Origin: Antedon mediterranea
Taxonomy: Eukaryota; Animalia; Echinodermata
Direction of reading: 5' to 3'
Length of the DNA stretch: 64,000 bases
Assembly (NCBI RefSeq): GCF_964355755.1
Contig: NC_092676.1
Span: forward strand, 3,387,888 to 3,451,887
This document shows positions 17,030-55,091 of this stretch, piece after piece. Below the pieces are notes generated by a model. That model saw only the letters and a list, made by a program, of their open reading frames with translations. It did not search any database and was not told the DNA's origin. Made by a program: the position numbers and the translations under genes. Every line of letters starts with the position of its first letter. The stretch's first letter is position 1.

Positions 17030-19036
17030 ATGTTTATAAAGACTTACCATCAACTTTGTACATTGCTGTTGTACAAGTGCCTGGTTATATTGTATGGTAT
17101 ACTTCACTGTTGTTGTGCACAATCCTATACTTTTACAAAACAACCAAAATCTGTTCTTGTTGGACAAAGAAACACAGCAATGTTGTCGTGTGAGTGGAAA
17201 CCAGCATTGAACGAAAACCATGTCGTTTACTGGTCAGCATACCCTCATGTTGGTGGGACGCAAGCAATCGATAGGTCAACTTTAAAGTACAATTTAACAA
17301 ATATAGCAACATCTGCATATCTTTCCATTTTTAATGTTGGTTACAACGATGTAGGAAGATACAGGTGTGATATCTCGGAAGGTGGTGGTTTATTCAGTCT
17401 TTCTGAACGTGCTTCTGTAGTTCTAGGAGAAATATTGTGCGATCCAAAAAATAGCAATGGTGAGATTGGAACAACGCTGACATGTTCCTATTTTACTTCT
17501 TATTATTCACGTGATATTGATTTACTATGGTATAAAAACAGGAAACAAATTACATCAAAAGTAAAACAAAACAATGCTATAAAATCAAGAGCTTTGACTG
17601 TTGAAGACGATGGAGCTGTATTTACTTGTAAAGCCAGAATTAGATCTCAAAATCAAGTGATAGGAACTTGTGAAACTACTCCTATTATATTAAGTATAGA
17701 TGCAGAGATTGTACAATCACCGCCAGGTCCACTTCAGTTTGGAGATAGCTTTAACCTTACCTGCTTAGGGAAAGGAAATCCTGATTATTATAATTATGAA
17801 TGGACGTGGAATGGCGAACCAGGAGGATCGTCACCAAATGGAAAGCGATTTGCAATTGGCAATGTGGTTACTGTGACGAGTGTATCAAGCAGATACAATG
17901 GCAAAACAGTTACCTGTACTATTAGTCGTAGTGGGCGTAACACAAGTACAGCAACATATACAGTAAACGTTATAGAACAAATGACTACACGTTTGCAGTC
18001 GACATCTGGTACGCGTACGCGCAACTCAATTACGGTCAGACTATCAGAAACTAATGTCGCGCATGACGTTTCACCAGTAATGACTAAAAGTTTACAGTCG
18101 ACACTAGGTACACGTACGTACAAGTCAATTACAGAAACTAATATCCAGGATAATGATTCTACAATAGTAATCATTGTCATCATTGGCGTAGTTGCGATAG
18201 CTCTTGTGAGTTTGATAACAGCGTTTATAATTTACGTTTTAAAGAAAAGGCACAAGACAAAACCCGAAAATGTACCATTGGAAAAACCAGTGTACGGTAA
18301 CACTGAACAAAACATTAACAGTTCTGAAATAGATAATTACCTTTGTGAAAATGTGGAGACAATATACGCAGAACCTGACCTGTCAGAAAATGGTTGCCAT
18401 GTTAAATATGACACGCCACAGAATGCATTAAATATTGATAAAACTGATGATTCTTTAGGTAAGCCAATGAAACCTAATGAAGCAAGTGATGCTAAGCCGG
18501 GAAAAATGACAAGTGCCGAAAGTACAGATGCAATACAAGTAAAACCGATCAAGGCCCGCAGTAAAGAAATTATTGAAGATCTGTATTCTAAGCCTAACAA
18601 ACGGAATGCGAAAACGCCGATCGAGGCCCAAAGCAAAGAGAATCTTGAAGATCTGTATACTAGGCCTAATAAACCGACTGCAAGCAGACCAATCAAGGCC
18701 CACAATGTTAAAGAAAGTCTTGAAGATCTGTATTCTAAGCCTAACAAACGGAATGCGAAAACGCCGATCGAGGCCCAAAGCAAAGAGAATCTTGAAAATC
18801 TGTATACTAGGCCTAATAAACCGACTGCAAGCAGACCAATCAAGGCCCACAATGTTAAAGAAAGTCTTGAAGATCTGTATTCTAAGCCTAACAAACCAAC
18901 GACAAGAACGCCAGAAATTACGCACGAAAATTCTACTAAAAAAAACGTAGAAGGCTTAACGTACGCAGAAATAGAGTTTACCCCTGAACCACAGGACTAC
19001 GGGCTTGATTACGCAACTGTACAGATTAAAAAGTAA
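17030..19036 (+). CDS. G5: 3-Ig receptor, class-B tail with five LY(S/T)(K/R)PNK repeats and paired ITIM-like motifs
   Basis: 668-aa ORF with SP, 3 Ig domains and TM IVIIVIIGVVAIALVSLITAFIIYVL; tail ends EGLTYAEI...GLDYATVQIKK. Confidence 0.9.
   Translation: MFIKTYHQLCTLLLYKCLVILYGILHCCCAQSYTFTKQPKSVLVGQRNTAMLSCEWKPALNENHVVYWSAYPHVGGTQAIDRSTLKYNLTNIATSAYLSIFNVGYNDVGRYRCDISEGGGLFSLSERASVVLGEILCDPKNSNGEIGTTLTCSYFTSYYSRDIDLLWYKNRKQITSKVKQNNAIKSRALTVEDDGAVFTCKARIRSQNQVIGTCETTPIILSIDAEIVQSPPGPLQFGDSFNLTCLGKGNPDYYNYEWTWNGEPGGSSPNGKRFAIGNVVTVTSVSSRYNGKTVTCTISRSGRNTSTATYTVNVIEQMTTRLQSTSGTRTRNSITVRLSETNVAHDVSPVMTKSLQSTLGTRTYKSITETNIQDNDSTIVIIVIIGVVAIALVSLITAFIIYVLKKRHKTKPENVPLEKPVYGNTEQNINSSEIDNYLCENVETIYAEPDLSENGCHVKYDTPQNALNIDKTDDSLGKPMKPNEASDAKPGKMTSAESTDAIQVKPIKARSKEIIEDLYSKPNKRNAKTPIEAQSKENLEDLYTRPNKPTASRPIKAHNVKESLEDLYSKPNKRNAKTPIEAQSKENLENLYTRPNKPTASRPIKAHNVKESLEDLYSKPNKPTTRTPEITHENSTKKNVEGLTYAEIEFTPEPQDYGLDYATVQIKK
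18575..18897 (+). repeat. Coding tandem repeat, 147-bp (49-aa, 24+25) dimeric unit in the G5 tail
   Basis: gaagatctgtattctaagcctaacaa at 18575, 18722 and about 18869. Confidence 0.9.
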
Positions 19037-19645
19037 CGTAATATTGTTACGTAACCGTTACGTATACAGTACTTACCGTTTACAACAATGTTTAATACGT
19101 TTATCACATGCTGTAGAAATTAATATTATTCAACTTTCGATATGTGACGTTCGGTCAGATCGTTTGTGACAGTTTCATGCAATGTGTATGTAGGCTTAAG
19201 ATTAACACAGAAGGTAATATGACATACGTCTCCAGCGACCTCCATAAAGAATATAGATTTAAATTAACAGACTATCACATTATCTACGTTAACGCGGATT
19301 GTTGTGAGTTATTTCTGTAACTTTGTATACAGTTTTTAATATAATTGATATAAAGTACCATTTTATTCTATAATAATTTTCTATGATAAATGAATACATA
19401 AATAGGATGCATTGCAGCCACATAAATATATAATTTAAGAAAGAAAGAACACTTGTTGGTAATTGTAAATATTAGATACAAAGTCAAATAATTCTTAGAT
19501 ATCATAGCCCTAAATCCGTTTACTTCATAATAGATGTATTGTAGTTGAATTCGGTTGCTTATCTATTTTGGTATTTATATTTAAAATAATAAATCTTGTG
19601 TTATGTAGGCCTAATTAACCTTGCGCATATAAATAAGTTACTTAA

Positions 19646-22804: not shown

Positions 22805-24520
22805 ATGGCTCATTCTCAATATTGGACATTGCTGTTCTTCAAGTTTCTGATTATATTTCATATATCTCACTGTTGTCATGCGCAGTACTACAATTTTACA
22901 GAACATCCACAATCGGTTCTCGTTGCAGACGGACAAACTACAACGCTATCGTGTGAATGGACACCAGCATTGAATAACAACCATCTCGTAACATGGAAAT
23001 ACGATCGTGTTAATAGTCCTAAACGAATTGAAATTTCAGATACAAAATACGCATTAATGAACGAAGCAACATCTTCAAGTCTTTCCATTTCTAATGTTGG
23101 CTCTGGTGACGTAGGCAACTACATTTGTGAGATCTTCGAATGTGATTCATACAACAGTGTCTCATCTTCTACATTTGCTTCTCTAGTATTAGGAGAATTG
23201 ATATGTAATCCGGAGAATATTGTTGATATAGGAACAACGCTGATATGCTCCTTCACCTCTTCTGATAATTCATATATTATTAATTTACTATGGTATAACA
23301 ACGGAAAAAAAATAACTTCGGGACAACAACAAAACAATGATTTAGAATCAACGGCTCTGACTGCCGAAGACGAAGGAGGTGTATTTACTTGTAAAACCAC
23401 TATCGGATTTCAAAGTCAAGCGACAGGAACTTGTGAAACTACTCCACTAGTATTTCCAATAGATGCAGAGATTCAACAATCACCACCAGGTCCACTTCAG
23501 GTTGGTGATAGCTTTAATCTTACCTGCGTAGGGAAAGGTAATCCTGAAAATTATAATTACGAATGGACGTGGAATAACAACCCAGTAGAATCTATGACAG
23601 ATAGTCGATTTGCAATTGGCAATATGGTTATTGTGAATACTGTATCAGGCAGTGACAATGGCAAAATGGTTTCTTGTACTATTAGTAGTGGTGGTTACAG
23701 AAGTATAGCGAGCTATACAATAAACATTTTGGATCAGACGTCGAGTACAACTACAAGTATGTCGACACCAGATAGGCCTACACGTACGCAAAAACCAATT
23801 ACGGCGGTCAGACTCACAATACCTGATGACCCGGATGACATTTCAACAACAGTAATGACTACACGTTTAAAGTCGACACTAGATACACGTACGCAAAAAC
23901 CAATTACGGTCAGACTCACAACACATAATGTTCCGGATGACATTTCAACAACAGCAATGACTACACCAGGTACACGTTTGCAAAAACCAATTACACATCA
24001 ACTCACAACACATAAAGTCTCGGAAGACGTTTCCGCAACAGTAGACCTAATGAATACACGTTTAAACACAACACCTGTTACTGTAACGCGTTCTATTACA
24101 GAAATCCTAACGGTTGTAATTATCGTAGTTGCAATTTTACTCGTCGTTTCTTTGATAATAATAATAAGCCTATGTGTTTATTTGCAAAAAAGAAAAAAGA
24201 AAAACACAACTCCTTCAAATCGACTGTCAAATAATCTTGAGCACGTTTACTATTCCATTACGTCATCTAGCGCACACGTGACCTCGACAGCCAGTAACAC
24301 TAAGTATGATTATGTCATACACCCGTTCACACGCAATACGGAAGAATCCACTCCTGAGTACCTTGAATTGGACGATGGTTTCCAAGATGGCGCACCAAAA
24401 TCAGCAAGTAATACAGCCGCTGATTACGATGATGTTGCATCGGAACAAACAGATACTAATAACAAAGAGTACAAATACGAAAATGGTATGCTGCGGGATA
24501 AAGGTATCAGAGAGACATAA
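22805..24520 (+). CDS. G6: divergent 3-Ig receptor with a long repeated mucin-like stalk and class-C-related tail
   Basis: ATG 22805 in ORF 22790-24520. Three TR(T/L)QKPIT stalk units; TM ILTVVIIVVAILLVVSLIIIISLCVYL; tail YDYV, EYLEL, DYDDV, KYEN. Confidence 0.88.
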   Translation: MAHSQYWTLLFFKFLIIFHISHCCHAQYYNFTEHPQSVLVADGQTTTLSCEWTPALNNNHLVTWKYDRVNSPKRIEISDTKYALMNEATSSSLSISNVGSGDVGNYICEIFECDSYNSVSSSTFASLVLGELICNPENIVDIGTTLICSFTSSDNSYIINLLWYNNGKKITSGQQQNNDLESTALTAEDEGGVFTCKTTIGFQSQATGTCETTPLVFPIDAEIQQSPPGPLQVGDSFNLTCVGKGNPENYNYEWTWNNNPVESMTDSRFAIGNMVIVNTVSGSDNGKMVSCTISSGGYRSIASYTINILDQTSSTTTSMSTPDRPTRTQKPITAVRLTIPDDPDDISTTVMTTRLKSTLDTRTQKPITVRLTTHNVPDDISTTAMTTPGTRLQKPITHQLTTHKVSEDVSATVDLMNTRLNTTPVTVTRSITEILTVVIIVVAILLVVSLIIIISLCVYLQKRKKKNTTPSNRLSNNLEHVYYSITSSSAHVTSTASNTKYDYVIHPFTRNTEESTPEYLELDDGFQDGAPKSASNTAADYDDVASEQTDTNNKEYKYENGMLRDKGIRET

Positions 24521-25340: not shown

Positions 25341-25624
25341 AAGAAAACAACAACACTAGATTATTAACGAGCAATACGACAAGAATAACACAGGAATTAG
25401 GAAGGCAGGAAGTTTTACGAAACTATTTTAAAATGTATTGGTTTATCAAGTTGTCCGGTATCGTGTTTTGTTTTCACTTTCATTATGTTTCTAAGTGTAC
25501 AATGAACGAATAAAATAATGCCAGTCAATTATCTATCAACATATTATTGGTTAAGGAAACGAATTATAATATAAGTAACCTCCTAAATGATATTATGTTA
25601 GGCATATACAAACTTTCATTGTCT

Positions 25625-26644: not shown

Positions 26645-28306
26645 ATGGCTCATCATCAATGTTGTACATTGCTGTTGTACAAGTGCCTGATTACATTGTA
26701 TAGTGTATTTCACTGCTGTTGTGCACAATCCTATACATTTACAAACGGTCCAGAATCGGTTCTCGTTGCTGAAGGACAAACAGTAACGTTATCTTGGGCA
26801 TGGACACCTGAATTGAATGAAAACCATTTTTTTAAATGGGTATACTATCCTGTTGGTAGAGCGGGTCAAGTAATTGAAAGTTCAACGTCAAAATACACTT
26901 TCACAAAAGGTACAACATTTTCAAATCTTTCCATTTTGAATGTTGGTCCTAATGATGTAGGAACATACTTGTGCCGTATCTCCGAAGGTGATCGTCTATA
27001 CAGTTACAGTGAAACTACTTATGTAGTGCTAGGAGTGTTAACGTGCAGTCCAGAATATGATAATGGTGACAAAGGAACAACGATGACATGTTCTTATGCT
27101 TCATCTTATCCTGCATATGCTATTGATTTACTATGGTATAAAAACGGGAATAAAATTACTTTAGCAGCACAACTACAAAATGGTATCAAAGAATCAAGAG
27201 CTTTGACTGCTGAAGACGATGGAGCTGTATTTACTTGTAAAGCCACAATTTATTCTGAAAAGATAGGAAGTTGTGAGACTACTCCGCTAATATTGAATAT
27301 AGATGCGGAGATTGAACAATCTCCGCCAGGTACACTTCAGGTTGGTGATAGCTTTACCCTTACCTGCTCAGGGAAAGGTAATCCTGAGTATTATAATTAT
27401 ACATGGACGTGGAGTGGCAAACCTGTAGGATCGTCATCAAATGAAAGGCCATTTGTAATAGGTAATTTGCTTATTGTGACGTGTGTATCAAGCAGTGACA
27501 ATGGCAAAATAGTTACTTGTACCATTAGTCGTGATGGCCGTAACAGCAGTACAGCGAGGTATACAAAACACGTCTTAGAGAATACGCCTACTGTTACAGA
27601 CTTACTATCAGCAAACAATGTCACAGACAACGAGCCTCAAACATTGATTATTGTCATTGGCGTAGTTGCAACAGTTATTGTGATTTTGATAACAGCAATT
27701 GTAATTTTCATTTTACATAAGAGGCGCAAGAAACAGGATGACAAAAAGACAAAACCTGAAAATGTACCATTGAAAGAACCAATGTATAGTAACACTGATA
27801 AAAATATTAACAGTTCTGAAAAATCACGCATACAAAATGGCCCTCGAAGTGAAAAGTTGAGAACAGATTTTACAGTATATGATGAGCCTACGATTTCAAG
27901 TTCAAATACTCAGTTGGAGACTATGTACGCCGAACCTGACAGGTTAGTAACTGGTCACGATGAAAGGTATGACACGCCACGGAACGCTATAAGTCTTGAT
28001 AATATCGATTCAGTGAGTACTGATCAAGCGAGTAACGCTAAGCCAAGAAAAACAAAAAGCAGAGAAAGTATTGATGCAATGTACGCGAAACCGAACAAGT
28101 CTCGCAGTAAAGAAAGTATTGATGATCTGTACGCTACGCCTAACAAACCGACTGCAAGAACGCCAGAGATTACCTGCGAAGATCCTACTAAGAAAAACGT
28201 AGAAGGCCTAACATACGCAGATATAGAGTTTAAAGGTGGTACGTCTCCAAACCCTGAACCACAGGACTACGGACTTGATTACGCAACTGTACAGATTATG
28301 AAGTAA
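26645..28306 (+). CDS. G7: 3-Ig receptor, short stalk, class-B ITIM-like tail; D1 lacks the first (B-strand) Cys
   Basis: ATG 26645. TLSWAW instead of TLSCEW; tail MYAKP, LYATP, LTYADI, LDYATV. Confidence 0.88.
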   Translation: MAHHQCCTLLLYKCLITLYSVFHCCCAQSYTFTNGPESVLVAEGQTVTLSWAWTPELNENHFFKWVYYPVGRAGQVIESSTSKYTFTKGTTFSNLSILNVGPNDVGTYLCRISEGDRLYSYSETTYVVLGVLTCSPEYDNGDKGTTMTCSYASSYPAYAIDLLWYKNGNKITLAAQLQNGIKESRALTAEDDGAVFTCKATIYSEKIGSCETTPLILNIDAEIEQSPPGTLQVGDSFTLTCSGKGNPEYYNYTWTWSGKPVGSSSNERPFVIGNLLIVTCVSSSDNGKIVTCTISRDGRNSSTARYTKHVLENTPTVTDLLSANNVTDNEPQTLIIVIGVVATVIVILITAIVIFILHKRRKKQDDKKTKPENVPLKEPMYSNTDKNINSSEKSRIQNGPRSEKLRTDFTVYDEPTISSSNTQLETMYAEPDRLVTGHDERYDTPRNAISLDNIDSVSTDQASNAKPRKTKSRESIDAMYAKPNKSRSKESIDDLYATPNKPTARTPEITCEDPTKKNVEGLTYADIEFKGGTSPNPEPQDYGLDYATVQIMK

Positions 28307-29331: not shown

Positions 29332-31349
29332 ATGGCTCGTCAGCAATTGTACATTGCTAATTATATTGTATAGTATATTTCACTGCTGTTTTGGAAAAAC
29401 ATATTTGTTCACAGAAGATCCACAATCGGTTCTCGTTGCAGAAGGACAAACAGCAACGCTATCGTGTGTTTGGAAACCAGAATTGTTCGAACAGCATAAC
29501 TTTGAATGGGTATTATTCCCTCAGGATTACGGTGAATCTCAATCAATTAAAATGTCAAATTCAAAATACAATTTAATAAATAACGCAACATCTTCATATC
29601 TTTCCATTTCCAATGTTGATTCTGATGACGCGGGAAACTACAGGTGTGATATCATCGGAATGAATGAATTCAGTTATTCTGATCAGGCTGCCGTAGTGAT
29701 AGGAGAAATAATGTGCAATCCAGAATATGATAAAGGTGAGATAGGAACAAAGCTGAAATGTTCTTATACTTCTTCTTATCCTTTAAATGATATTTATTTA
29801 CGATGGTATAAAGACGGAAATATAGTAATATCAGACACAAAAGACAAACACGTTTTAGAATCAAGAGCTTTGACTGCTGAAGACGATGGAGCTGTATTTA
29901 CTTGTAAAGCCACAGTTGGATCTCAAGTGATAGGAACTTGTGAAACTACTCCTCTAGTATTGACTATAGATGCAGAGATTGAACAATCACCACCAGGTCT
30001 ACTTCAGGTTGGAGATAGCTTTAATCTTACCTGCTCAGGGAAAGGTAACCCCGATTATTATGAATATGAATGGACGTGGAATGGCAACCCCGTACGATCG
30101 TCACCAAATGAAAGTCGATTTTCAATAGAGAGTGTAGTTACTGTGAAGGATGTATCAAGCAGTGCTAATGGCAAAATAGTTACTTGTACTATCTGTCATA
30201 GTGGTCGTGACACCAGTGTAGCGAATCATACAATCAATATTTCAGAGAATATGCAAAGTACAACTGCACGTTCACACACAACACAAGTTACGCCTACTGT
30301 TACAGACCTACTATTACCAACCATTTTATCTGAAACCAAACTATCAACAAACAATGTCGCAGACAACGACCCCCAAATATTGATTATTGTCATTGGCGTA
30401 ATTGCAGCCGTTATTGTGATTTTGATAACAGCAATTGTAATTTTAATTTACATTTTACATAAAAGGCGCAAAAAACAGGATGGCAACAAGACAAAACCTG
30501 ACAATGTACCATTGAAAGAACCAATATACAACTCTGATCAAGAAAGTATTATTGAAACGCGCGTAGATGGCTCTCTGCGCGAAACGCTGATAACAGATTT
30601 GGCTGTATATGATGAACCTGCAATGTCAGACACACATGGAAACTTGCAGATTGTTTACGAAGACCCTGACGTGCCGCCACACGGCCAATTAACAGAAAAA
30701 GACAAGTATGATTATGTTACATCAGAAGAAATGACAGTTGAAAGAGAAAGCAAAAACGAGTATGACTATGCGGCAATAACAGACACTCACAGTGCCGAGA
30801 TGACAGATGAATCAGACATTAAAAATAACTATGATTATGTGGTATCAGTAGACACCCACAGCACAGAAAATGAATATGACGATGTAACATCAGCAGACGA
30901 TCAAAACGATGAAACAGAAAATGAGTATGATTATGTGGAAACATCAGGCATAGGCGCCACAGAAAAAGAAGGCTCTGCAGAATACATTGAACTTGTTGAT
31001 GACAACGCCGATGTCGCCTGTCACCAGAGGAAGCCACTAACAACTAATATCTAATATGCCTGCTGCATCCAAGTACAATGTTGCTTCAATGTCACAAACT
31101 TATAGAGCAAATGATAATGAGGCTGAGTACGAAAACAGTAAATTACATCGTCCCAAAGGTATCTCGACTTCTGACAACTCAAACACACAGTTATCACAGA
31201 GATCAAGAAGAGATGGAATAACCATTTCAGATAATCGCGAAGATGACGTCACCAAGGTGCATACGAGTACAGTTGAAGTACCTGATACAAACGACGTGTA
31301 CGAAAATGCATAGGTACGAACAAAAGCAGCGAAGGGTTCTAAGAAATAG
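29332..31349 (+). pseudogene. G8: probable pseudogene, class-A tail
   Basis: ATG 29332 is out of frame with ORF 29354-31054 (small deletion in the signal peptide). The tail is disrupted near 31010-31056 and has TAG at 31311-31313 in place of TCG. Confidence 0.75.
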
Positions 31350-32715
31350 AGGAAGAAAAACAGAACGAAACGTACAGAATAGTAATACAAAAACCAACAA
31401 TGAAAAGTGCACAAACGCATATTATCATAGAGACTACTGTCTCCAACACGTACAGGAGTGTGACTTATTCTTAAAAGTATTGTGAGACTAGCATGGGCCA
31501 TGATACTTCCATGGTAAGAGAAATAGAAAACTAGGCTAAATATATACGTTTATATCTTGAATTATTATAGCATGAGTTAAAAAAATATTGAAATTTTGTT
31601 TAAGGAAGTAAATTAAAAATATTATATTAGAAATAATCAATTCTGAGATGAACATAAACCAGAAAAGGGAAAGACAGGAAATATTAACAGATGATTAGCA
31701 AGAATTAAAACCGTACACAAATCAGGAAAGAAAAACAGATTTAAGGTCATCGATAACATATCCTTATTTGGCATGAAATAAGCAACAATAAAATATCAAC
31801 ATGTGCAAGTACACGTGATCGCCAACACGGTTTTTCCATGTTTCTATATAAAACTACGATTTTATACGTCATTAGATTTCTATATAAATATAATTTAAAT
31901 ATTAAACTTTAAGCAACAACTTATTATTGATCAATATTTACACGTTGCAAATTAGTAATTTTGTGAATAGGTATTTAATATATTTCGTATCATTTATATA
32001 AATATTTCTATTTATATTTTTGCTTTAAGGCTATCATTTTTATACTACAATAATTTTAAACTAGTTCAGACTTATGTTTTTCTTAGCAGAATAAATAAAT
32101 AAATAGTATCAGATATCACAAATGTGTGAAGGAATACGTTTAAAATGGTAACGTACCGTATTGTAAATATATAGTATCTTATTTCATAATGAATAACATT
32201 AAAAATATTATTTTATTCTCTCAGCTTGAGTGTAGGCCTACTACTCACAGTACGGTCATGTAAATATAGTATCTTATTTCATAATGGATAACAAAAATAT
32301 ATTTCATTGAATATGTAATTAATTGTTGCTATAATCGATTATTATTATTAAATATATTATAAAGAGCCATCAAATTAAACTTCGTTTGTACTTGTTTGTT
32401 GATTAAGGAACAAATGAATGAAAAGAGCAGCAGTTGAGATCAACGGTTAACGAGAATAAGAAAGTTGTAACCGAATAGTGACTAGGAAGGAAGACTTTGA
32501 GAATTTATACAAAGCGACAAATATAAATGTCAAAGGTCTTAGCTTGGTTATTTCAAACCCAAAATGCATTTTCTTTTACGAAATAAGGCCAAACATATCA
32601 GGGAAACGACATCCTTCTAAACATTGCACTGTATATAGTTCTTGATACATTTAAAACATTTCTGAAATAACTGTCCCGAAATGGAATTTGTTTAAAAGAT
32701 ATCTACACTAGAGTA

Positions 32716-37430: not shown

Positions 37431-39332
37431 ATGTTTATAATGACTCATCATCATTGCTTGCTGTGCCTGATTGTGTTGTATAGTATATTTCACTGCTGTT
37501 TTGGACAAACCTATTTGTTCACAGAAGATCCACAACCGGTTCTCGTTGCAGAAGGACAAACAGCAACGCTATCATGTGTTTGGAAACCAGAATTGTTCGA
37601 ACAGCATAACTTTGAATGGGTATTTTTCCCTCAGGATGGTGGTCAGGCTCAATCAATTCGAATGTCAAATTCAAAACACAATTTAATAAATAACGCAACA
37701 TCTTCGAATCTTTCAATTTTTAATGTTGATTCTGAAGACGCGGGAGACTACAGGTGTGATATCATAGGAAATAATGAATACAGTTATTCTAATCAGGCTG
37801 CCGTAGTGATAGGAGAAATAAGATGCAATCCAGAATATGATACTGGTGAAATAGGAACAACGCTGACATGTTCTTATACTTCTTCTTATCCTTTAAATGA
37901 TATTGATTTACGATGGTATAAAGACGGAAATAGAGTAATATCAGACACACAAGACAAACACGTTTTAGAATCAAGAGCTTTGACTGCTGAAGACGATGGA
38001 GCTGTATTTACTTGTAAAGCTTTTATCGGACATCAAGTGATAGGAACTTGTGAAACTACTCCGCTAGTACTGACTATAGATGCAGAGATTGAACAATCAC
38101 CGCCAGGTACACTTCAGGTTGGTGATAGCTTTAATCTTACATGCACAGCAGGGAAAGGTAATCCTGAATATTATGAATATGAATGGATGTGGACTGACAA
38201 ACCAGTAGGATCGTCAACATGTAAAAATAAATTTGCAATAGGCCATGTCCTTACGGTTTTGGGTGCATCAATTAATACGAATGGCACAAACGCTACTTGT
38301 ATTATTAGTCGTGATGGTCGAAACATCAGTACAACGACCTATACAATAAATACAGTTTTCATAAGTTTGACCTCAACAACGACACATTCACACACGACAC
38401 CAGGTACGCATACACACAAGTCAAGTATATATAAACTATCAGAAACTACTAGACTAAAGATTGTCATTGGAGCCGTTTCAGTAGCGCTTGTGATGTCGAC
38501 GACAGGAAATATAATTTACTTGTTAAGAAAAAGGCGCAAAAAGATTAAACGAATAAGCCTGCAATTAAAATCAATGAATGACATTGAACAAAAGACTACA
38601 GATTCTGACGTTCATGGAAATTTGGTGACAGTTTTGACTGTTGATAAGCCTGGGATTTCAAAAGAGTCAAACGCAGAAGACAATTTAACCACTATGTCAT
38701 GTGATAAACGTACACTGGCAGCACGTGACCAATTACAAGACAACGTTGATTATGATTTTGTTGCATCAGCAGACAATCAAAGCACTGACAATACAGTAAA
38801 CAGCAACAATGAATGCCATGATTCGGCATTAGTAGACATTCACAACGACGAAATGACATCTGAAACAGGCAGTGAATATGAGTATGATTATGTGGAGACA
38901 TCAGGTATAGGGGCCACAGAAAATATCGGCTCTGCAGAATACATTGAGGTTGTCGAGGACAGCGCTAATGACGATTCCAGTAAAGATTCACTAAAAACAG
39001 AAAATACTAGGCCTACAGCTGGCGAGTACAATGATGCTTCAATGTCACAAACTTATATTTCCATAAATACTAGAACAAATGATAAAGAAGCTGAGTACGA
39101 AAACAGTAAATTACATCGTCTCAAAGGTATCTCGACTTCTGACAACTCAAAGACCAAGTCCGAAAGTGTTAAATTATCATCGAGATTAAGAAGAGATGGA
39201 ATAACCATTTCAGATAATCGCGAGGATGACGTCACCCTGGTGTATGCGAGTACAGTTGAAGTACCTGATAGAAACGACGTGTACGAAAATGCATCGGTAC
39301 GCACAAAAGCAGTGAAGTGTGCTAAGAAATAG
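37431..39332 (+). CDS. G9: 3-Ig receptor with atypical polar TM and class-A tail
   Basis: 633-aa ORF; D1 close to G8 and G11; TM IVIGAVSVALVMSTTGNIIYLL; tail ends DVYENASVRTKAVKCAKK. Confidence 0.9.
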   Translation: MFIMTHHHCLLCLIVLYSIFHCCFGQTYLFTEDPQPVLVAEGQTATLSCVWKPELFEQHNFEWVFFPQDGGQAQSIRMSNSKHNLINNATSSNLSIFNVDSEDAGDYRCDIIGNNEYSYSNQAAVVIGEIRCNPEYDTGEIGTTLTCSYTSSYPLNDIDLRWYKDGNRVISDTQDKHVLESRALTAEDDGAVFTCKAFIGHQVIGTCETTPLVLTIDAEIEQSPPGTLQVGDSFNLTCTAGKGNPEYYEYEWMWTDKPVGSSTCKNKFAIGHVLTVLGASINTNGTNATCIISRDGRNISTTTYTINTVFISLTSTTTHSHTTPGTHTHKSSIYKLSETTRLKIVIGAVSVALVMSTTGNIIYLLRKRRKKIKRISLQLKSMNDIEQKTTDSDVHGNLVTVLTVDKPGISKESNAEDNLTTMSCDKRTLAARDQLQDNVDYDFVASADNQSTDNTVNSNNECHDSALVDIHNDEMTSETGSEYEYDYVETSGIGATENIGSAEYIEVVEDSANDDSSKDSLKTENTRPTAGEYNDASMSQTYISINTRTNDKEAEYENSKLHRLKGISTSDNSKTKSESVKLSSRLRRDGITISDNREDDVTLVYASTVEVPDRNDVYENASVRTKAVKCAKK

Positions 39333-39847
39333 AAGAAGAATAACATAATCAACCGTACAGAATATTCATGCAAAAACAAACAATGAAAGAAACTTGTTTA
39401 TGAATGCTTAATCCCTAAATTAGAGGTTTATGGCAGGTATGATATCTTTAGTATTAAGGTTTTTATTAGTGAAATTGTTAACTTTCAACATTTGCAAACT
39501 AGTGTCCTTACGTACAGGGATGTGACTTAAAAGTATTGTAAGACTAGTATGGGCCATGGTACTTTCATGGTAAGAGAAATAGAAAAGTAGGCTAAATATA
39601 TAAGTTAATGTCTTGAATTATTATAGCATTAGTTAAAAAAGTATTGTAATTTTGTTTAAGGAAGTAAATAAAAATATTATATTAGAAATAATCAACTCTG
39701 AAATGAACATTAACCAGAAAAGGGAAGGAAGGAAGTATTAACAGATGATTAGCAAGAATTAAAACTGTACAGAAAAGAGAAAAGAAAAACAGAATAAAAT
39801 TCATCGATAAAATATCCTAATTTGGCATGAAATAAGCAACAATACTA

Positions 39848-40882
39848 ATGCTGACTATAGATGCAGAGATTGAACAGTCACCACCAGGTCCACTTCAGGC
39901 TGGGGATAGGTTTACCCTTACCTGTTCAGGGAAAGGTAATCTTGATTATTATGAATGGACGTGGAATGGCAAACCTAGGATAGGATCGTCGACAGATAAA
40001 AGTCGATTTGCAATAGATAATGTGCTTACTGCGACGAGAGTATCAATCAATGCTAATGGCAGAATAGTTACTTGTACTATTAGTCGTAGTGGTCGTAACA
40101 GCAGTACAGCGAGTTTTACAATAAATGTTCTACAGAACAATTCGAGTAGGCCTACTACTACACATTTGCAAACAACACCAACACAACAAGTCGTTACAGA
40201 CAAACTACTACCAACTACACGATTACACACTACACGTTTACATTCGACACGTACGCAACAAGTCTTTACAGACAAACAACTACCAACTACACGCTTACAC
40301 ACTACACGTTTACACACTACATGTTTGTCGACACGTACGCAACGATTCACTAAAGACCTAAAACTATCAGAAACTAATATATCGGCTGACAAGCCCCCAA
40401 CACTAATGGTTGTAATTAGTGTACTTGCAATTTTACTCGTAGTTTCTTTAATATTAATAATATACATGTATTTACAAAAAAGAAACGTATCTAGAGACAA
40501 CATAATTCCTTTAAATCGACCACCGAAAAATATTGGACACATTTACGATTATATTGTGTCTTCAGACACACAGATCAACACGAAAGGCCATGACACAAAC
40601 ACGTATGATTATGCCATATATCCGTGTACTCGCATCGCAGAGAACACAAGTGCTGAATACATTGAAGTAGAAGACAGTTTCCATGAGGGCCCACAAAAAC
40701 CAGAACAAAATATGACCGCAGTCGAGAACGATGATGTGTCCTTACAACCAACGGATATTTGCAGCAAAGAGGCCACGTACGAAAATGGTGAATTGCGTAT
40801 CAAAGGCATAGCAACTTCTGACAATATAACAACAATTAAGTACGAAAATACTAAATCATCTACGCATCTACAGGAAATATAA
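39848..40882 (+). pseudogene. G10: 5'-truncated copy (D3, stalk, TM, class-C tail only)
   Basis: The ORF begins at the D2/D3 boundary (LTIDAEIEQSPPG), fused to class-A 3'-flank sequence. No signal peptide, D1 or D2. Confidence 0.75.
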
Positions 40883-43438: not shown

Positions 43439-44920
43439 ATGACTCATCATCATTGCTTGCTGTGCCTGATTGTATTGTGTAGTATATTTTACGAATGTTT
43501 TGCACAAATATATGTCTTCACAGAAGACCCGAAATCAGTTCTTGTTGCTGAAGGAAACACAGCAAGTCTATCGTGCGAATGGAGACCAGAATTGGATGAA
43601 CGACATATCTTTGAATGGGTATTCTTCCCTGATGATGGTGGTCAGGCTCAATCAATTAGAATGTCAAATTCAAAGTACAATTTAATAAATAACGCAACAT
43701 CTTCGAATCTTTTTATTTCCAATGTTGCTTCTGATGACGTGGGATACTACAGGTTTGAGATCATCGGAATAAATAATGAATACAGTTTAGGCCTATCTGA
43801 TCCGGCTGCCGTAATGATAGGAGAAATAAGGTGCAATCCAGAATATGATAATGGTGAAATAGGAACAACGATGTCATGTTCTTATCTTTCTTCTTATCCT
43901 TCAAATGATATTTATTTACGATGGTATAAAGACGGAAATATAGTATTATCAGACACACAAGACAAACACGTTATAGAATCAAGAGCTTTGACTGCTGAAG
44001 ACGATGGCGCTGTATTTTCTTGTAAAGCCACACTGGTGGTATCTCAAATTCAAGTGATAGGAACTTGTGAAATTACGCCGCTAGTATTGACTATAGATAC
44101 AGAGATTGAACAATCACCACTAGGTCAACTTCAGGTTGGTGATAGCTTTAATTTTACCTGCTCAGGGAAAGGAAATCCTGATTACTATGATTATAAATGG
44201 ACGTGGAATGACAAACCAGTAGGATCGTCGCCAAATAAAAGACGATTTGCAATAGGTAATGTGCTTACTGCGATGAGTGTACCAAGCAGTGCTAATGGCA
44301 AAAACGCTACTTGTACCATTAGTCGTAGTGGTCGCAACAGCAGTACAGCGAGATATACAATAAACGTGCTAGAGAACATTTGGAGTAGGCCTAAAACTAC
44401 ACGATTGCAAACAACACCAGATAGACGTACGCAACAACTCATTACAGACCAAATCTCAGCAACTAATATCTCATCGGGTGACGAGTCCCCAACACTAATG
44501 GTTGTTATTAGTGTACTTGCAATTTCATTTGTAATTGCTTTAATATTAATAATATACATGCATTTACAAAAGAGGAACTTAGCTAGGGACAACACAATTC
44601 CTTCAAAACGACCGTCGACTAATATTGGGCACAATTACGATTACATTACGTCATCAGACACACACGTGACCACGGCAGTCAATGACATAGATAATAAATA
44701 CGATTATGCCGTATATCCGTGCACACGAAATGAGAAAAACGTCACTGATGAATATATTGAGGTAATCAATTTTTCCCAAGATGACCCACCAAAACCAGAA
44801 AGTAATATCGCGGCTGAGTACGCTAACGTTGCGTTGCAACCAACAGATATTTGCAGCGAAGAGCCAAAGTACGAAAATAATAAACTACGTGTTAAACGCT
44901 ACAAGCATGACAACGTCTGA
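43439..44920 (+). CDS. G11: 3-Ig receptor, G9-type D1 (second Cys changed to Phe), class-C tail
   Basis: ATG 43439. DVGYYRFEI instead of YRCDI; TM LMVVISVLAISFVIALILIIYM; tail ends KYENNKLRVKRYKHDNV. Confidence 0.87.
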   Translation: MTHHHCLLCLIVLCSIFYECFAQIYVFTEDPKSVLVAEGNTASLSCEWRPELDERHIFEWVFFPDDGGQAQSIRMSNSKYNLINNATSSNLFISNVASDDVGYYRFEIIGINNEYSLGLSDPAAVMIGEIRCNPEYDNGEIGTTMSCSYLSSYPSNDIYLRWYKDGNIVLSDTQDKHVIESRALTAEDDGAVFSCKATLVVSQIQVIGTCEITPLVLTIDTEIEQSPLGQLQVGDSFNFTCSGKGNPDYYDYKWTWNDKPVGSSPNKRRFAIGNVLTAMSVPSSANGKNATCTISRSGRNSSTARYTINVLENIWSRPKTTRLQTTPDRRTQQLITDQISATNISSGDESPTLMVVISVLAISFVIALILIIYMHLQKRNLARDNTIPSKRPSTNIGHNYDYITSSDTHVTTAVNDIDNKYDYAVYPCTRNEKNVTDEYIEVINFSQDDPPKPESNIAAEYANVALQPTDICSEEPKYENNKLRVKRYKHDNV

Positions 44921-46446: not shown

Positions 46447-48003
46447 ATGGCTCAACATCAATATTGTACATTGCTGTTTTACAAGTACTTGATTATATCG
46501 TATAGTGTATTTTACTGCGGCTGTGCACAATTTTATACTTTTACACAACATCCACAATCGGTTCTCGTTGCTGAAGGACAAACAGCAACGTTATCGTGTG
46601 AATGGACACCAGCACTGATATATGTAAACCATAACTACATTGCATGGGCAGTATTTCCCAATCGTGGTAGGTCTGAGACAATTGAAAGTTCTAATTCAAA
46701 ATACAATTTAAGAAATGGAGCAACATTTTCATTTTTATCCATTCTCAATGTTGATTATAACGATGTCGGAAAATACAGGTGTGATATCTTTGATAGTGAT
46801 TCAACATACACTCTTTCTGAATCGGCTTCTGTAGTTCTAGGAGAAATAACGTGCAGTCCAGAGAATGACAATGGTGAGATTGGAACAACAATGACATGTT
46901 CTTATTTTACTTCTTATTATTCACGTGATATTGATTTACTATGGTATAAAAACAGGAAACAAATTACATCAAAAGTAAAACAAAATAATGTTATCAAATC
47001 AAATTTGACTGTCGAAGACGATGGAGCTGTATTTACGTGTAAAGCCACTGTCAGACCATCACATAGACTGATAGGAACTTGTGGAACTACTCCGCTAGTA
47101 TTGACTATAGATGCAGAGATTGAACAATCACCACCAGGTACACTTCAGGTTGGAAATAGCTTCAATCTTACCTGCTCAGCGAAAGGTAATCCTGATTATT
47201 ATAATTACGAATGGACGTGGAATAACAAACCTGTAGGATGGTCACCAAATAAAAGACTATTTGCAATAGGTAATGTGCTTACTGCGACGAGTGTATCAAT
47301 CAATGCTAATGGCAAAATGATTACTTGTACCATTAGTCGTGATGGTCGTAACAGCAGTACAGCGAATTATACAATAAACGTTATAGAGAACATTTCGAGT
47401 AGGCATACAACTAAACAACACTATACAACACCAGGTAGACGTACGCAAAAAGTCGTTACAGACAAACTACTACCAACTACACGCTTACACACTACACGTT
47501 TGCAGTCGACACGTCCGCAACCACTCATTACAGACAAACTATCAGAAAATATCTCTTCGGCTGACGAGCCCCCAACACTAATGGTTGTTATTAGTGTACT
47601 TGCAATTTCACTTGCAATTGCTTTAATATTATTAATATACATGAAAATACAAAAGAGGAACTTAGCTAGAGACAACACAATTCCTTCAAAACGACCGACG
47701 ACTAACATTGGACACAATTATGATTACATTACGTCATCAGACACACACGTGACCACGGCAGTCAATGACATAGATAATAAATACGATTATGCCGTATATC
47801 CGTGCACACGCAATGAGAAAATCGTCACTGCTGAATATATTGAGGTAGTCAACTTTTCCAAAGATGACCCAACAAATCCAGAAAGTAATAGCGCGGCTGA
47901 GTACGATAACGTTGCATTGCAACCAACAGATATTTGCAGCGAAGAGCCAAAGTACGAAAATAATAAACTACGTGTTAAACGCTACAAGCATGACAACGTC
48001 TGA
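46447..48003 (+). CDS. G12: 3-Ig receptor, class-C tail
   Basis: 518-aa ORF with SP, 3 Ig domains, stalk, TM and a tail with YDYI/YDYAVY/EYIEV/YDNV/YEN. Confidence 0.9.
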   Translation: MAQHQYCTLLFYKYLIISYSVFYCGCAQFYTFTQHPQSVLVAEGQTATLSCEWTPALIYVNHNYIAWAVFPNRGRSETIESSNSKYNLRNGATFSFLSILNVDYNDVGKYRCDIFDSDSTYTLSESASVVLGEITCSPENDNGEIGTTMTCSYFTSYYSRDIDLLWYKNRKQITSKVKQNNVIKSNLTVEDDGAVFTCKATVRPSHRLIGTCGTTPLVLTIDAEIEQSPPGTLQVGNSFNLTCSAKGNPDYYNYEWTWNNKPVGWSPNKRLFAIGNVLTATSVSINANGKMITCTISRDGRNSSTANYTINVIENISSRHTTKQHYTTPGRRTQKVVTDKLLPTTRLHTTRLQSTRPQPLITDKLSENISSADEPPTLMVVISVLAISLAIALILLIYMKIQKRNLARDNTIPSKRPTTNIGHNYDYITSSDTHVTTAVNDIDNKYDYAVYPCTRNEKIVTAEYIEVVNFSKDDPTNPESNSAAEYDNVALQPTDICSEEPKYENNKLRVKRYKHDNV

Positions 48004-48856: not shown

Positions 48857-49414
48857 TAAAATGTTTATATAAAATGTATGGTTTTCTTTAATCATTTAAT
48901 AATGAATGTAGAGAAAACACTGTAAATAAGTAAAATTTGTTGTTGTTCTGTCTAATTTTTATTTAAAATAATAATATTTGCTGCGTCACTGCGTCTGGTT
49001 TATATTAACAGTATTCTCGTTAGAAGAATAAATCTTTATTATATTAATATTATTATTATATAATTATCTAATCTAAAATCAAATCATTTTTCAAAACTAG
49101 AGAAGAAGGCTTCGTTTTATTATTTGTCTCTAAACAACGTTCCGCGGATATAATGTTGGATTGAAGTGTTTATCAATTGAGCAGCATACGTGTGAACAAG
49201 CAAACATTATTAAATGTCTAAACATTATTACTGGTGTCTTTGAATCGTCGGAATAAGGAATATAATTTATAGGAATATTTGCGTAAATCTCAATTTGATA
49301 AAGAATTTCCAATTTTCGGACATCAATCGAGGTGCCTTAGTCAGTACTGTACCATTCCTATTATAACAACGCATAGGAACATCGAACGTCTTATGATATC
49401 TAATATTGACTACA

Positions 49415-50979
49415 ATGTTTATAAAGACTTACCATCAACTTTGTACATTGCTGTTTTACAAGTGCCTGGTTATATTGTATAGTATATTTCACTGTTGCTG
49501 TGCACAATCCTATACTTTTACAAAACAACAAAAATCTGTTTTTGTTGGACAAAGAAACACAGCAATGTTGTCGTGTGAATGGAAACCAGCATTGAATGAA
49601 AACCATGTCGTTTACTGGTCAGCATACCCTCATGTTGGTGGGTCACCAGCAATCGCAATCGATAGGTCAACTTTAAAGTACAATTTAACAAATATAGCAA
49701 CATCTGCATATCTTTCCATTTTTAATGTTGGTTACAACGATGTAGGAAGATACAGGTGTGATATCTCGGAAGATGGTGATTTATTCAGTCTTTCTGAACG
49801 TGCTTCTGTAGTTCTAGGAGAAATATTGTGCGATCCAAAAAATAGCAATGGTGAGATTGGAACAACGATGACATGTTCCTATTTTACTTCTTATTATTCA
49901 CGTGATATTGATTTACTATGGTATAAAAACAGGAAACAAATTACATCAAAAGTACCACAAAACAATGCTATAAAATCAAGAGCTTTGACTGTTGAAGACG
50001 ATGGAGCTGTATTTACTTGTAAAGCCAGAATTAGATCTCAAAATCAAGTGATAGGAACTTGTGAAACTACTCCTATTATATTAAGTATAGATGCAGAGAT
50101 TGTACAATCACCGCCAGGTCCAGGTCTCAGGTTGGAGATAGCTTCAACCTTACCTGCTTAGGGAAAGGTAATCCTGATTATTATAATTATGAATGGACGT
50201 GGAATGGCGAACCAGTAGGATCGTCACCAAATGGAAAGCGATTTGCAATTGGCAATGTGGTTCCTGCGACGAGTGTATCAATCAATGCTAATGGCAAAAT
50301 AATTACTTGTACCATTAGTCGTGATGGTCGTAATAGCAGTACAGCGAATTATACAATAAACGTTCTAGAGAACATTTCGAGTAGGCCTACAACTACACGA
50401 TTGCAAACAACACCAACGCAACAAGTCGTTACAGACAAACTACTACCAACTACACGCTTACACACTACACGTTTGCAATCGACACGTGCGCAACGACTCA
50501 TTACAGACCAACTCTCAACAACTAATATCTCATCGGCTGACGAGCCCCCAACACTAATGGTTGTTATTAGTGTACTTGCAATTTCACTTGCAATTGCTTT
50601 AATATTAATAATATACATGAAAATACAAAAGAGGAACTTAGCAAGAGACAACACAATTCCTTCAAAACGACCGACGACTAACATTGGACACAATTATGAT
50701 TACATTACGTCATCAGACACACACGTGACCACGGCAGTCAATGACATAGATAATAAATACGATTATGCCGTATATCCGTGCACACGCAATGAGAAAATCG
50801 TCACTGCTGAATATATTGAGGTAGTCAACTTTTCCAAAGATGACCCAGCAAATCCAGAAAGTAATAGCGCGGCTGAGTACGATAACGTTGCATTGCAACA
50901 AACAGATATTTGCAGCGAAGAGCCAAAGTACGAAAATAATAAACTACGTGTTAAACGCTACAAGCATGACAACGTCTGA
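49415..50979 (+). pseudogene. G13: frameshifted copy (G5-like ectodomain, class-C tail)
   Basis: ORFs 49406-50161 and 50257-50979. ccaggtccaggtctcaggtt at about 50114-50133 versus ccaggtccacttcaggtt in paralogs (net +2 nt). Confidence 0.8.
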
Positions 50980-51093
50980 CAATGTAAAAACCAAGTACGA
51001 AAATATTTACGCGCTGGCCATCAGTGAGGATAAATACAATGACGTCATATTGAGGATCACAGAAGCGCATACTGACGACGCAAACGAGTACGA

Positions 51094-51375
51094 AAATGGA
51101 TTAGAATGATTAAACCAGTAAACTCTGTTATCTAAATGGACTAGTACGATTAAACCAGTAAACTCTGTTATCTCAATGGATTAGTGCGATTAAAAACCGT
51201 AAAATCTCTTATCTAAATGGATTAGTACGATTAAATCTGTAAACTCTGTTATATAAATGGATTAGTACGATTAACCTAGTAAACTCTATTATCTAAATGG
51301 ATTAGTACGATTAAAAACAGTAAACTCTGTTATCTAAATGGATTAGTACGATTAAACCAGTAAACTCTGTTATTT
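51094..51375 (+). repeat. 40-bp minisatellite, ~7 copies
   Basis: Same unit and variant order as 14438-14720. Confidence 0.95.
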
Positions 51376-51590
51376 TAAACAAGAACACTTGGAACACTAA
51401 GATATAAAAACACACTGAATGTTTATATAAAAAGGAAATTGTATGGTTTTCTATAATCATTTAATAATGAATGTATAATAATAAGTAACGTTTGCTGTTG
51501 TTCTGTCACATTTTTATTTTGAAATAATAATATTTGCTGCGCCACGGGGTCTTATATTAACAGTATTCACGTTAGAAGAATAAATCTTTA

Positions 51591-53540: not shown

Positions 53541-55091
53541 ATGTTTAAAATGTATCATCAATATTGTACATTGCTGTTTTTCAAGTGCCTGGTTATATTG
53601 TATAGTATATTTCACTGTTGTTGTGCACAATCCTATACTTTTACAAAACAACCAAAATCTGTTCTTGTTGGACAAAGAAACACAGCATCGTTATCGTGTG
53701 AATGGAGACCAGCATTGAATGAAAACCATGTCGTTTTCTGGACAGCATACCCAGATGTTGGTGCGTGGCAAGCAATCGATAGGTCAACTTTAAAGTACAA
53801 TTTAACAACTATAGCAACATCTGCATATCTTTCCATTTTTAATGTTGATTACAAAGATGTAGGGAACTACAGGTGTGATATCTCGGAAGATGGTGGTTTA
53901 TACAGTCTTTCGGAACAGGCTTCTGTAGTGATAGGAGAAATATTGTGCGATCCAAAGAATGGTGAGATTGGAACAACGCTGACATGTTCCAATTTTACTT
54001 TTTATTATTCACGTGATATTGATTTACATTTCTATAAAGACAGGAAACAAATTAAGTCCGATGTTAAAAATTATGTTATAAAATCAGGAGCTTTGACTGC
54101 CGAAGACGATGGAGCTGTATTCACTTGTAAAGCCACCACTGGAATCCAAAATCAAGTGATAGGAACTTGTGAAATTACGCCGCTAGTATTAACCATAGAT
54201 ACAGAGATTGAACAATCACCACCAGGTCCACTTCAGGTTGGGGATAGCTTTAATCTTACCTGCTCAGGGAAAGGCAAACATGATTACTATGATTACAAAT
54301 GGACGTGGAATGACAAACCAGTAGGATCGTCGCCAAATGAAAGGCGATTTGCAATAGGTAATGTTCTTACTGTGATGAGTGTACCAAGCAGTGCTAAGGG
54401 CGAAGACGCAACTTGTACTATTAGTCGTAGTGGTCGCAACAGCAGTACAGCGAGCTATACAATAAATGTGCTAGAGAAAATTTGGAGTAGGCCTACAACT
54501 ACACATTTGCAAACAATACCAGGTAGACGTACGCAACAAGTCGTTACAGACAAACTACTACCAACTACACGCTTACACACTACACGTTTACAGTCGACAC
54601 GTGCGCAACGACTCATTACAGACCTCCTATCAGAAACTAATATATCGGGTGACGAGCCCCCAGCTCTAATGCTTGTTATTAGTGTACTTGCAATTTTACT
54701 CGTAGTTTCTGTAATATTAATAATATACATGTATTTACAAAAGAGGAACTTAGCTAGAGACAACATAATTCATTCAAGTCAACCATCGAATAATATAGGA
54801 CACAATTACGATTACATTACGTCATCAGACACACACGTGACCACGGAAGTCAATGACATAGATAATAAATACGATTATGCCGTATATCCGTGCACACGCA
54901 ATGAGAAAAACGTCACTGCTGAATATTTTGAGGTAGTCTACTTTTCCAAAGATGACCCACCAAAACCAGAAAGTAATATCGCGGCTGAGTATGCTAACGT
55001 TGCATTGCAACCAACAGATATTTGCAGCGAAGAGCCAAAGTACGAAAATAATAAACTACGTGTTAAACGCTACAAGCATGACAACGTCTGA
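53541..55091 (+). CDS. G14: 3-Ig receptor, class-C tail
   Basis: 516-aa ORF; D1 of the G4/G5 type; D2 core Trp replaced (LHFYKD); TM LMLVISVLAILLVVSVILIIYMYL. Confidence 0.9.
   Translation: MFKMYHQYCTLLFFKCLVILYSIFHCCCAQSYTFTKQPKSVLVGQRNTASLSCEWRPALNENHVVFWTAYPDVGAWQAIDRSTLKYNLTTIATSAYLSIFNVDYKDVGNYRCDISEDGGLYSLSEQASVVIGEILCDPKNGEIGTTLTCSNFTFYYSRDIDLHFYKDRKQIKSDVKNYVIKSGALTAEDDGAVFTCKATTGIQNQVIGTCEITPLVLTIDTEIEQSPPGPLQVGDSFNLTCSGKGKHDYYDYKWTWNDKPVGSSPNERRFAIGNVLTVMSVPSSAKGEDATCTISRSGRNSSTASYTINVLEKIWSRPTTTHLQTIPGRRTQQVVTDKLLPTTRLHTTRLQSTRAQRLITDLLSETNISGDEPPALMLVISVLAILLVVSVILIIYMYLQKRNLARDNIIHSSQPSNNIGHNYDYITSSDTHVTTEVNDIDNKYDYAVYPCTRNEKNVTAEYFEVVYFSKDDPPKPESNIAAEYANVALQPTDICSEEPKYENNKLRVKRYKHDNV

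Follow-up and report, generated by a model that had tools for sequence, protein, structure and literature searches.

Mosaic three-immunoglobulin-domain receptor genes in a tandem array of Antedon mediterranea, likely formed by unequal crossing-over and gene conversion

We analyzed a window of 64,000 nucleotides from the genome of the echinoderm Antedon mediterranea (assembly GCF_964355755.1, contig NC_092676.1, positions 3,387,888 to 3,451,887 of the forward strand; positions below count from the first letter of the window). It contains a tandem array of predicted receptor genes of the immunoglobulin (Ig) superfamily. Sixteen genes or gene pieces of one family (G0 to G15) lie head-to-tail, all on the + strand, together with one long interspersed nuclear element (LINE) (Table 1). 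No second gene family was found among window frames of at least 150 amino acids. The window has 33% G+C and a CpG observed/expected ratio of 0.99, that is, no CpG depletion, a composition that speaks against a vertebrate origin. Intact members consist of a single open frame that encodes a signal peptide, three Ig domains (D1–D3), a Thr-rich stalk, a transmembrane (TM) helix and a tyrosine-rich cytoplasmic tail, and we infer from these continuous frames that the coding region is one exon. A conserved T-rich motif ending in AG lies ∼40–140 bases 5′ of most start codons (e.g. 16900–16920); possibly, it is the acceptor of an intron in the 5′ untranslated region, and the coding region would then form the last exon. 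Fourteen loci lie wholly inside the window. Eight of these have an open frame (G2, G5, G6, G7, G9, G11, G12, G14) and six are broken (G1, G3, G4, G8, G10, G13), with orphan pieces in addition. G0 and G15 are truncated by the window ends.

Table 1. Members of the receptor array and the first copy of the junction-spanning unit
Feature	Positions	Strand	Description	Evidence
G0	329..703	+	3′ end of class-A tail; cut at window start	tblastn with G2, G8, G9; translation
G1	1761..4048	+	Broken: leader, 1.4-kb insertion in D1, D1–D3 with stop; after D3, direct join to alpha-type upstream DNA, without TM or tail	
G2	4810..6936	+	Intact; mosaic alpha-like D1, G5-type stalk end, G7/G8-type TM (5956–6033), class-A tail of 300 residues with 17 Tyr	
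G3	7290..8790	+	Broken: frameshift deletion in D1, D2 stop common to G4, further frameshifts; G6-type TM, C-like tail	
G4	13112..14323	+	Broken: alpha D1, D2 stop, TM and most of C tail deleted	
G5	17030..19036	+	Intact; alpha D1, late D3 and stalk of G2 type, TM (18164–18241), class-B tail: 7 YxxP motifs and, at the C terminus, two ITIM-like motifs (∼18956–18973, ∼19004–19021)	
G6	22805..24520	+	Intact; D1 of its own type, long stalk rich in Thr, tail C-like but divergent	
G7	26645..28306	+	Frame intact; own D1 type, G8-type stalk end and TM (27641–27715), class-B tail with 5 YxxP motifs and two ITIM-like motifs (∼28208–28225, ∼28274–28291)	
G8	29332..31400	+	Broken twice: ATG (29332) out of frame with remainder, tail frameshift near 31010–31050, later stop; beta D1, class-A tail	
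G9	37431..39332	+	Frame intact; beta D1, TM of low hydrophobicity, class-A tail, decayed in its proximal part	
G10	39836..40882	+	5′-truncated piece: D3, stalk, TM, C tail	
G11	43439..44920	+	Frame intact; beta D1–D2 joined at ∼44045 to G14-type D3 and C tail	MaxChi, painting
G12	46447..48003	+	Intact; own D1 type, G3-type upstream DNA, C tail	
G13	49415..50979	+	Frameshifted; G5-like D1–D2, G4-like D3 and stalk, G12-like C tail	MaxChi, painting
G14	53541..55091	+	Intact; alpha D1 joined at ∼54141 to G11-type late D2–D3 and C tail	MaxChi, painting
G15	62885..64000	+	Alpha D1, G2-type D3 and stalk; cut at window end, tail beyond window	
Junction-spanning unit, copy 1	14193..17976	+	C-tail end, 40-bp satellite (14438–14723), alpha upstream DNA, alpha D1–D2	

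All nine receptor frames scanned gave Pfam matches to Ig_3, Ig_2, I-set or V-set; in the same scan, Fn3 had no match at E ≤ 0.1 and Sushi had none. An AlphaFold model shows Ig strands for D1 and D3, with D2 poorly modelled at low confidence, and the top Foldseek matches are Ig tandems at 11–16% identity. With their signal peptide, Ig folds, one TM helix and cytoplasmic tail, the intact members have the makeup of type I receptors of the Ig superfamily.

Two D1 types have several members. Type alpha comprises G4, G5, G13, G14 and G15 at 90–97% nucleotide identity, with G2 at 79–83%, and type beta comprises G8, G9 and G11 at 83–92%, compared to 62–74% between this group and the other 11 aligned genes. 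An earlier, sequence-only reading of this DNA had given G8, G9 and G11 a common D1 with tails of classes A, A and C, and this was borne out (73–86% amino acid identity in D1 among the three). It had also treated the three tail classes as independent signals, and this was not supported. A and B tails have the TM, juxtamembrane region and ∼100 proximal residues in common (G7/G8, 56%, E = 1e-31), with all A and B tails carried on one TM class, and A and C tails have a distal acidic tyrosine region in common (G2 versus G10–G14, 32–36%, E ∼1e-11). Three unrelated classes are thus ruled out, A overlapping B proximally and C distally. Intact frames combine the two D1 types with the tails in five of six possible ways: alpha-A (G2), alpha-B (G5), alpha-C (G14), beta-A (G9) and beta-C (G11). 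Beta-B is absent in the window.

To classify the tails by motif, we used consensus patterns for immunoreceptor tyrosine-based inhibitory and activation motifs (ITIM and ITAM) that agree with those in PMC9546547. Two ITIM-consensus motifs occur in the last 35 residues of both B tails and of none of the other ten tails (shuffle probability 0.0009 and 0.0005), so that at motif level 2/2 B tails have the ITIM feature of the inhibitory member of a receptor pair. The ITAM pattern matches none of the 12 tails, and no Lys, Arg, Asp or Glu, as looked for in the activating member of a pair, lies within the TM cores listed. By motif, the tails are of two kinds, B versus A/C. The B tails each carry 5–7 YxxP motifs. 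The block with the two ITIM-consensus motifs is conserved between G5 and G7, with a ratio of nonsynonymous to synonymous differences per site (pN/pS) of 0.62. An in-frame 72/147-bp repeat (18544–18897) enlarges the G5 tail, each unit contributing one more YxxP; G7 has fewer. YxxP motifs would engage YxxP-binding adaptors, and acidic tyrosine motifs other SH2 adaptors. The ITIM-like motifs make it likely that the B tail is inhibitory.

To assess mosaicism, we aligned 13 ectodomains (802 ungapped columns, 255 informative sites; G0, G1 and G10 were left out as lacking segments). The pairwise homoplasy index (PHI) was 0.453, compared to 0.564 ± 0.007 in 10,000 permutations (P = 1e-4). The ratio of near to all incompatibilities was 0.80, whereas 25 simulations on a single tree, run at the observed site rates, never gave less than 0.972; the best MaxChi value was 92.3, compared to a maximum of 25.8 in 40 such simulations. 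Rate variation along the gene, which might have produced the PHI and MaxChi signals, is excluded by simulations of this kind. Across 858 triplets, the best MaxChi per gene exceeded 25.8 for 9 of the 13 genes, with breakpoints at columns 644–707 (end of D2) and 827–902 (D3). Values were high for G11 (74.7; 112/136 versus 12/64 sites), G13 (91.6; 137/149 versus 1/21 sites) and G14 (90.2).

The sequence-only reading had proposed comparing separate trees for each segment. We did so using approximately unbiased (AU) tests on the 11 genes with all segments (G0, G1, G4, G10 and G15 lack some), and found the trees to be incongruent. The trees of D3 and TM are both rejected on the D1 data (P ∼1e-26), and none of the four other trees is acceptable for the TM data (P ≤ 1e-5). 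The D1 tree is compatible with the D2 data (P = 0.36), and rejection of the D2 tree by the D1 data is only mild (P = 0.0095). It follows that the main split is between the 5′ half and the 3′ half of the gene. The tree for upstream DNA carries little weight because its alignment is gappy. Painting each gene with a copying model made every one a patchwork, with 6 switches in upstream DNA, 4 in the leader, 25 in D1, 12 in D2, 17 in D3, 14 in the stalk, 2 in the TM and 21 in the tail, some of those in stalk and tail being alignment noise in segments of very low identity. Swapping at domain borders was considered and rejected, as the painting puts switches inside D1, D2, D3, stalk and tail. Mean pairwise identity is 0.83–0.90 over columns 584–824, peaks at 0.87–0.90 at the D2/D3 border and is 0.62 in the variable part of D1; the strongest breakpoints fall within or next to the stretch of highest similarity, columns 584–824.

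G2, G7 and G8 do have, as had been noted, a common TM and juxtamembrane region at the sequence level, with tails A, B and A, and the stalk end common to G2 and G5 is likewise present. Every A and B tail goes with this TM class, so a common TM by itself reflects shared ancestry, and we rejected it as stand-alone proof of recombination. The G2/G5/G7/G8 quartet goes further: G2 sides with G5 at 18 of 21 informative sites before or in the TM and with G8 at 24 of 29 later sites, in a part that aligns poorly after the TM. This four-gene conflict, with all four combinations, is real evidence for recombination in the TM region.

G5 and G13 had been singled out as near-identical ectodomains on B and C tails. 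At the sequence level this is correct (nucleotide identity 97% in D1, 99% in D2 and 90% in D3, with unlike stalks), but G13 yields no tail. A net +2 frameshift near 50120–50128, at the D2/D3 border, brings the frame from the ATG to a stop at 50161, after D2, and the predicted product of 249 residues is a two-Ig form without TM or tail. Differences between the two genes cluster after column ∼905, in the last third of D3, and G13 D3 is 98% identical to that of G4. A near-identical ectodomain pair with different outputs is therefore not supported by the genes complete in the window, as the only such pair includes the frameshifted gene; G15, with a D1 92% identical to that of G5, has its tail beyond the window end. 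The best intact B-versus-C pair, G5/G14, has 85/78/72% amino acid identity in D1/D2/D3, and G9/G11 has 76/83/67%.

The idea of a recombinational matrix of specificity by signal holds in part. 5′ halves (upstream DNA, D1, D2) do occur on different 3′ halves (late D3, stalk, TM, tail), and most D1-by-tail cells are filled by intact frames, but the swapping is not cleanly modular, with switches inside domains. Mosaicism is far beyond chance. Same-strand tandem paralogues, incongruent 5′ and 3′ trees, duplications, deletions and pseudogenes are all present, and the hybrid-gene cluster is real and well supported.

A repeated unit spans gene junctions (copy 1 in Table 1) and occurs in four places: between G4 and G5, G12 and G13, G13 and G14, and G14 and G15, the last split by the LINE. 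Its copies are mostly 95–100% identical (14193–14939 versus 50849–51590, 98.5%; 14519–16161 versus 60925–62565, 98.9%; 16761–17976 versus 49146–50369, 94.9%), and each has private insertions, deletions and satellite lengths. A repeat unit that starts and finishes inside genes points to crossing-over between misaligned neighbours, with one hybrid gene formed per event. Deletion products are also present, namely G1 fused to alpha upstream DNA, G10, and orphan leader and tail pieces.

The 40-bp minisatellite of this unit, in 3 to 18.5 copies (14438–14723, 48118–48856, 51094–51373, 55206–55328, 60923–61129), sits directly 3′ of the C tails of G4, G12, G13 and G14 and 5′ of G15; it may aid misalignment. 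Between G14 and G15, the LINE-type open reading frame 2 (55492–58842, +; T-run 58926–58960) lies between two pieces of this satellite. It has 1116 open codons with endonuclease, RVT_1 and zf-RVT domains, and CpG is sharply lower in it (8–15 per 2 kb versus 40–80 elsewhere).

Short conversion is likely as well. G3 and G4 are identical over columns 353–529 and differ at 2 sites over columns 353–579, a tract that holds their shared stop. Tracts across the D1/D2 border are common to G3 (7576–7827), G4 (13428–13570) and G15 (63279–63389) and appear to be conversion tracts. The element of 1.4 kb that interrupts D1 of G1 (1872–3287) has 38-nucleotide terminal inverted repeats and more inverted repeats internally, and looks like a non-autonomous DNA transposon. 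Orphan relics comprise a leader and D1 start 5′ of G7 (25560–25790) and an A-tail piece 5′ of G4 (11041–11160). A dispersed repeat at 80–89% identity occurs at 31433–32077, 35308–36041 and 39388–39844, and the third copy adjoins G10 at its missing 5′ half. At 9453–9764 there is a perfect two-copy tandem repeat of 154 bp (100% identical), which is either very recent or an assembly duplication.

We think it probable that the mosaic three-Ig type I receptor genes of the array arose by repeated unequal crossing-over and gene conversion in uninterrupted coding regions, and that they encode predicted receptors for non-self or cell recognition in which the B tail is likely inhibitory. In such a scheme, misaligned neighbours would cross over in the conserved D2–D3–TM block, and each exchange would yield a hybrid gene and a duplicated or deleted spacer. 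The exchanges would fall in coding DNA because the frame has no introns, and the frame would be kept because the exchange is homologous. Short conversions would add patches, one of which may have carried the stop codon between G3 and G4. Judging from motifs, phosphorylated B tails would bind tandem-SH2 phosphatases, through the two ITIM-like motifs, and YxxP-binding adaptors, while the acidic, Tyr-rich A/C tails would be phosphorylated by kinases and recruit other SH2 adaptors. The incomplete matrix of D1 types and tails would then be what birth-and-death evolution has left at present, perhaps with some filtering by selection, with no dedicated swapping device.

Several points weigh against this reading. 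In the ectodomain, G2, G6, G7 and G12 (4/13) stay within the MaxChi range of the simulations, and a gene flagged by MaxChi may be a parent rather than a hybrid. For older hybrids, crossing-over and long conversion tracts are inseparable, and the junctions are read from assembled sequence of one haplotype. Canonical D1 cysteines are replaced in G7 (the first, by Trp) and G11 (the second, by Phe), frames that are perhaps decaying, and the G9 TM is weak (best 19-residue Kyte–Doolittle mean 1.94 versus 3.1–3.6 in the other 11); for these reasons, functional genes are perhaps fewer than eight. Whole-domain ratios of nonsynonymous to synonymous substitution rates (dN/dS, Nei–Gojobori) are 0.90 in D1, 0.90 in D2 and 0.66 in D3, the D1 and D2 values being the unfavourable ones. 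Site models do give a signal for diversifying selection (2dL of 17.5 for D1, the most variable domain, 8.3 for D2 and 6.7 for D3), but these were run with our own script on a single tree and are inflated by recombination. As for function, a recognition receptor with an inhibitory B form seems most likely; the Ig architecture would also suit a part in adhesion or in the nervous system.

Selection might be doing more than filtering, keeping each D1 type on both an inhibitory tail (B) and a non-inhibitory one (A/C), in the manner of paired receptors. The filled cells fit this, with alpha D1 found on all three tails, as do the few differences between G5 and G13 over D1–D2, the peak of the site-model signal in D1 and the homogenization limited to ligand domains that PMC3210942 describes in paired receptors. 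We nonetheless consider this doubtful. The near-identical partner, G13, yields no tail and G8 is broken twice; the tails and TM cores bear no activating feature of the kinds scored above; beta-B is missing; G2 D1 is unlike G5 D1 in the most variable loop (75% amino acid identity); and switches are spread over all regions. Passive crossing-over yields the same pattern, and with one haplotype the selected matrix is indistinguishable from such a by-product. A fuller version, in which a germline paired-receptor system without ITAMs evolved in an undescribed, probably ambulacrarian, single-coding-exon Ig family apart from those of vertebrates and tunicates, is likewise doubtful: in-frame crossing-over would continually re-pair variable D1–D2 heads with ITIM or acidic-Tyr tails and shed secreted two-Ig decoys (G13), and selection would keep matched inhibitory and non-inhibitory versions.

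At the other extreme, the array could be largely decaying, with near-neutral receptor copies shuffled into functionless combinations. Six of 14 complete loci are broken, other open frames have lost cysteines or a strong TM, dN/dS is ∼0.9 in D1 and D2, and a stop codon appears to have spread by conversion between G3 and G4. Yet eight frames of 500–710 codons remain open at 10–35% nucleotide divergence, and omega under model M0 is 0.53–0.72, with a conserved site class. The tails are under mild purifying selection, with pN/pS below 1 in 10 of 10 pairs (0.38–0.91), and in 9 of 10 pairs the tail tyrosines are better conserved than the remaining residues (equal 9/9 counts included; the exception is G2/G9). 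We consider such large-scale decay very unlikely. We give marginally less credence still to the view that the youngest hybrids and the 98–99% duplicated units are assembly artefacts, from uncollapsed or switched haplotypes. Blocks of 747 and 1643 bp at 98.5–98.9% identity, and a G13 within 1–4% of its donors on either side, fit such errors, and G13 and these blocks could be haplotype artefacts. Against this, every unit copy has its private insertions, deletions and satellite lengths, and G3 and G4 have a stop in common. Moreover, G11, G14, G2, G7 and G8 are 6–14% divergent from their nearest donors on both sides of each switch, and hence these hybrids are not assembly joins.

If mosaic receptors formed by crossing-over and conversion are what the array holds, the mechanism will not surprise a specialist, because hybrid-gene formation in receptor clusters is known. 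The value lies in a compact, apparently undescribed family in a lineage with poorly catalogued immune receptors. As each gene is one open frame of ∼1.5–2 kb, heads and tails can be directly cloned and swapped, and the family is suited to asking whether ITIM-based inhibition and head–tail re-pairing predate chordates. If selection maintains matched pairs, paired-receptor logic would have arisen independently once more.

The searches made point to no close relative of the family. Word-indexed searches with G7 (E ≤ 1e-3) and full-length alignment (E ≤ 1e-5) found no homologue among ∼8,000 scored candidates each. Searching 1.84 billion representatives with a profile yielded 1,913 matches at E ≤ 0.001, the best 150 being mostly long multi-Ig proteins; a sequence search of the PDB gave 7 matches, to distant Ig proteins only, and the Atlas gave generic Ig receptor clusters at 0.93–0.94. 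Among the best 150 of the 1,913, the best single-pass matches over D1–D3 are hemichordate Ig receptors at 22–29% identity: XP_077864653.1 and XP_077865053.1 (Saccoglossus), XP_070550306.1 (Ptychodera) and XP_078001388.1 (Glandiceps). These have four Ig domains, compared to three here, and automatic names only. XP_077864653.1 has two ITIM-consensus motifs at its C-terminal end, of which the first lies in a tail-B-like context, the only such case among the best 150; its tail match to B is weak alone (E = 0.035 in the 150-protein set), a further point against our interpretation, and a search with this protein returned only itself. No description of this family was found in the literature searched, which lay mostly outside subscription journals.

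Several known systems resemble the array in part. The Alr cluster of Hydractinia comprises single-pass Ig-family genes and pseudogenes with a V-set D1 and, in some, ITIM tails (PMC9546547), but it differs in having an Fn3-like segment, a separate exon for each domain and, in many tails, ITAMs, all absent here. In Botryllus, the FF/FcoR Ig clusters mix ectodomains and intracellular regions by intergenic recombination, and FcoR tails contain ITIMs and other Tyr motifs (PMC12582321); FcoR differs in its Ig-Sushi-Ig-Ig order, multiple exons, pairing with FF, hemITAMs and exchange of motifs by splicing, none of which is seen here. By architecture, the array belongs to neither Alr nor FcoR. Paired leukocyte receptors have similar, homogenized ectodomains with different tails and an established opposing function (PMC3210942), and the tandem KIR cluster of humans contains hybrid receptor genes and varies in copy number, with rearrangements tied to Alu sites (PMC2816608). 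Unlike these, the array exchanges sequence within coding DNA, and its 12 tails showed no motif of an activating partner; judged by motif, the array departs from paired receptors in this defining respect. Another parallel is chicken BG, same-strand tandem Ig-family genes whose 5′ and 3′ ends fall in separate lineages around a scrambled middle, as found with AU, Shimodaira–Hasegawa and PHI tests, and whose hybrids are attributed to unequal crossing-over or deletion (PMC4046983). The array is like BG in its same-strand tandem order, its separate 5′ and 3′ lineages and its hybrids. BG genes are multi-exon, with one V domain and few pseudogenes reported in that paper, whereas genes of the array encode three Ig domains and a tail with Tyr motifs in one continuous frame, and many copies are broken; the parallel drawn is one of process. 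The hybrid-gene process itself is already in print for chicken BG, KIR, paired leukocyte receptors and Botryllus FF/FcoR.

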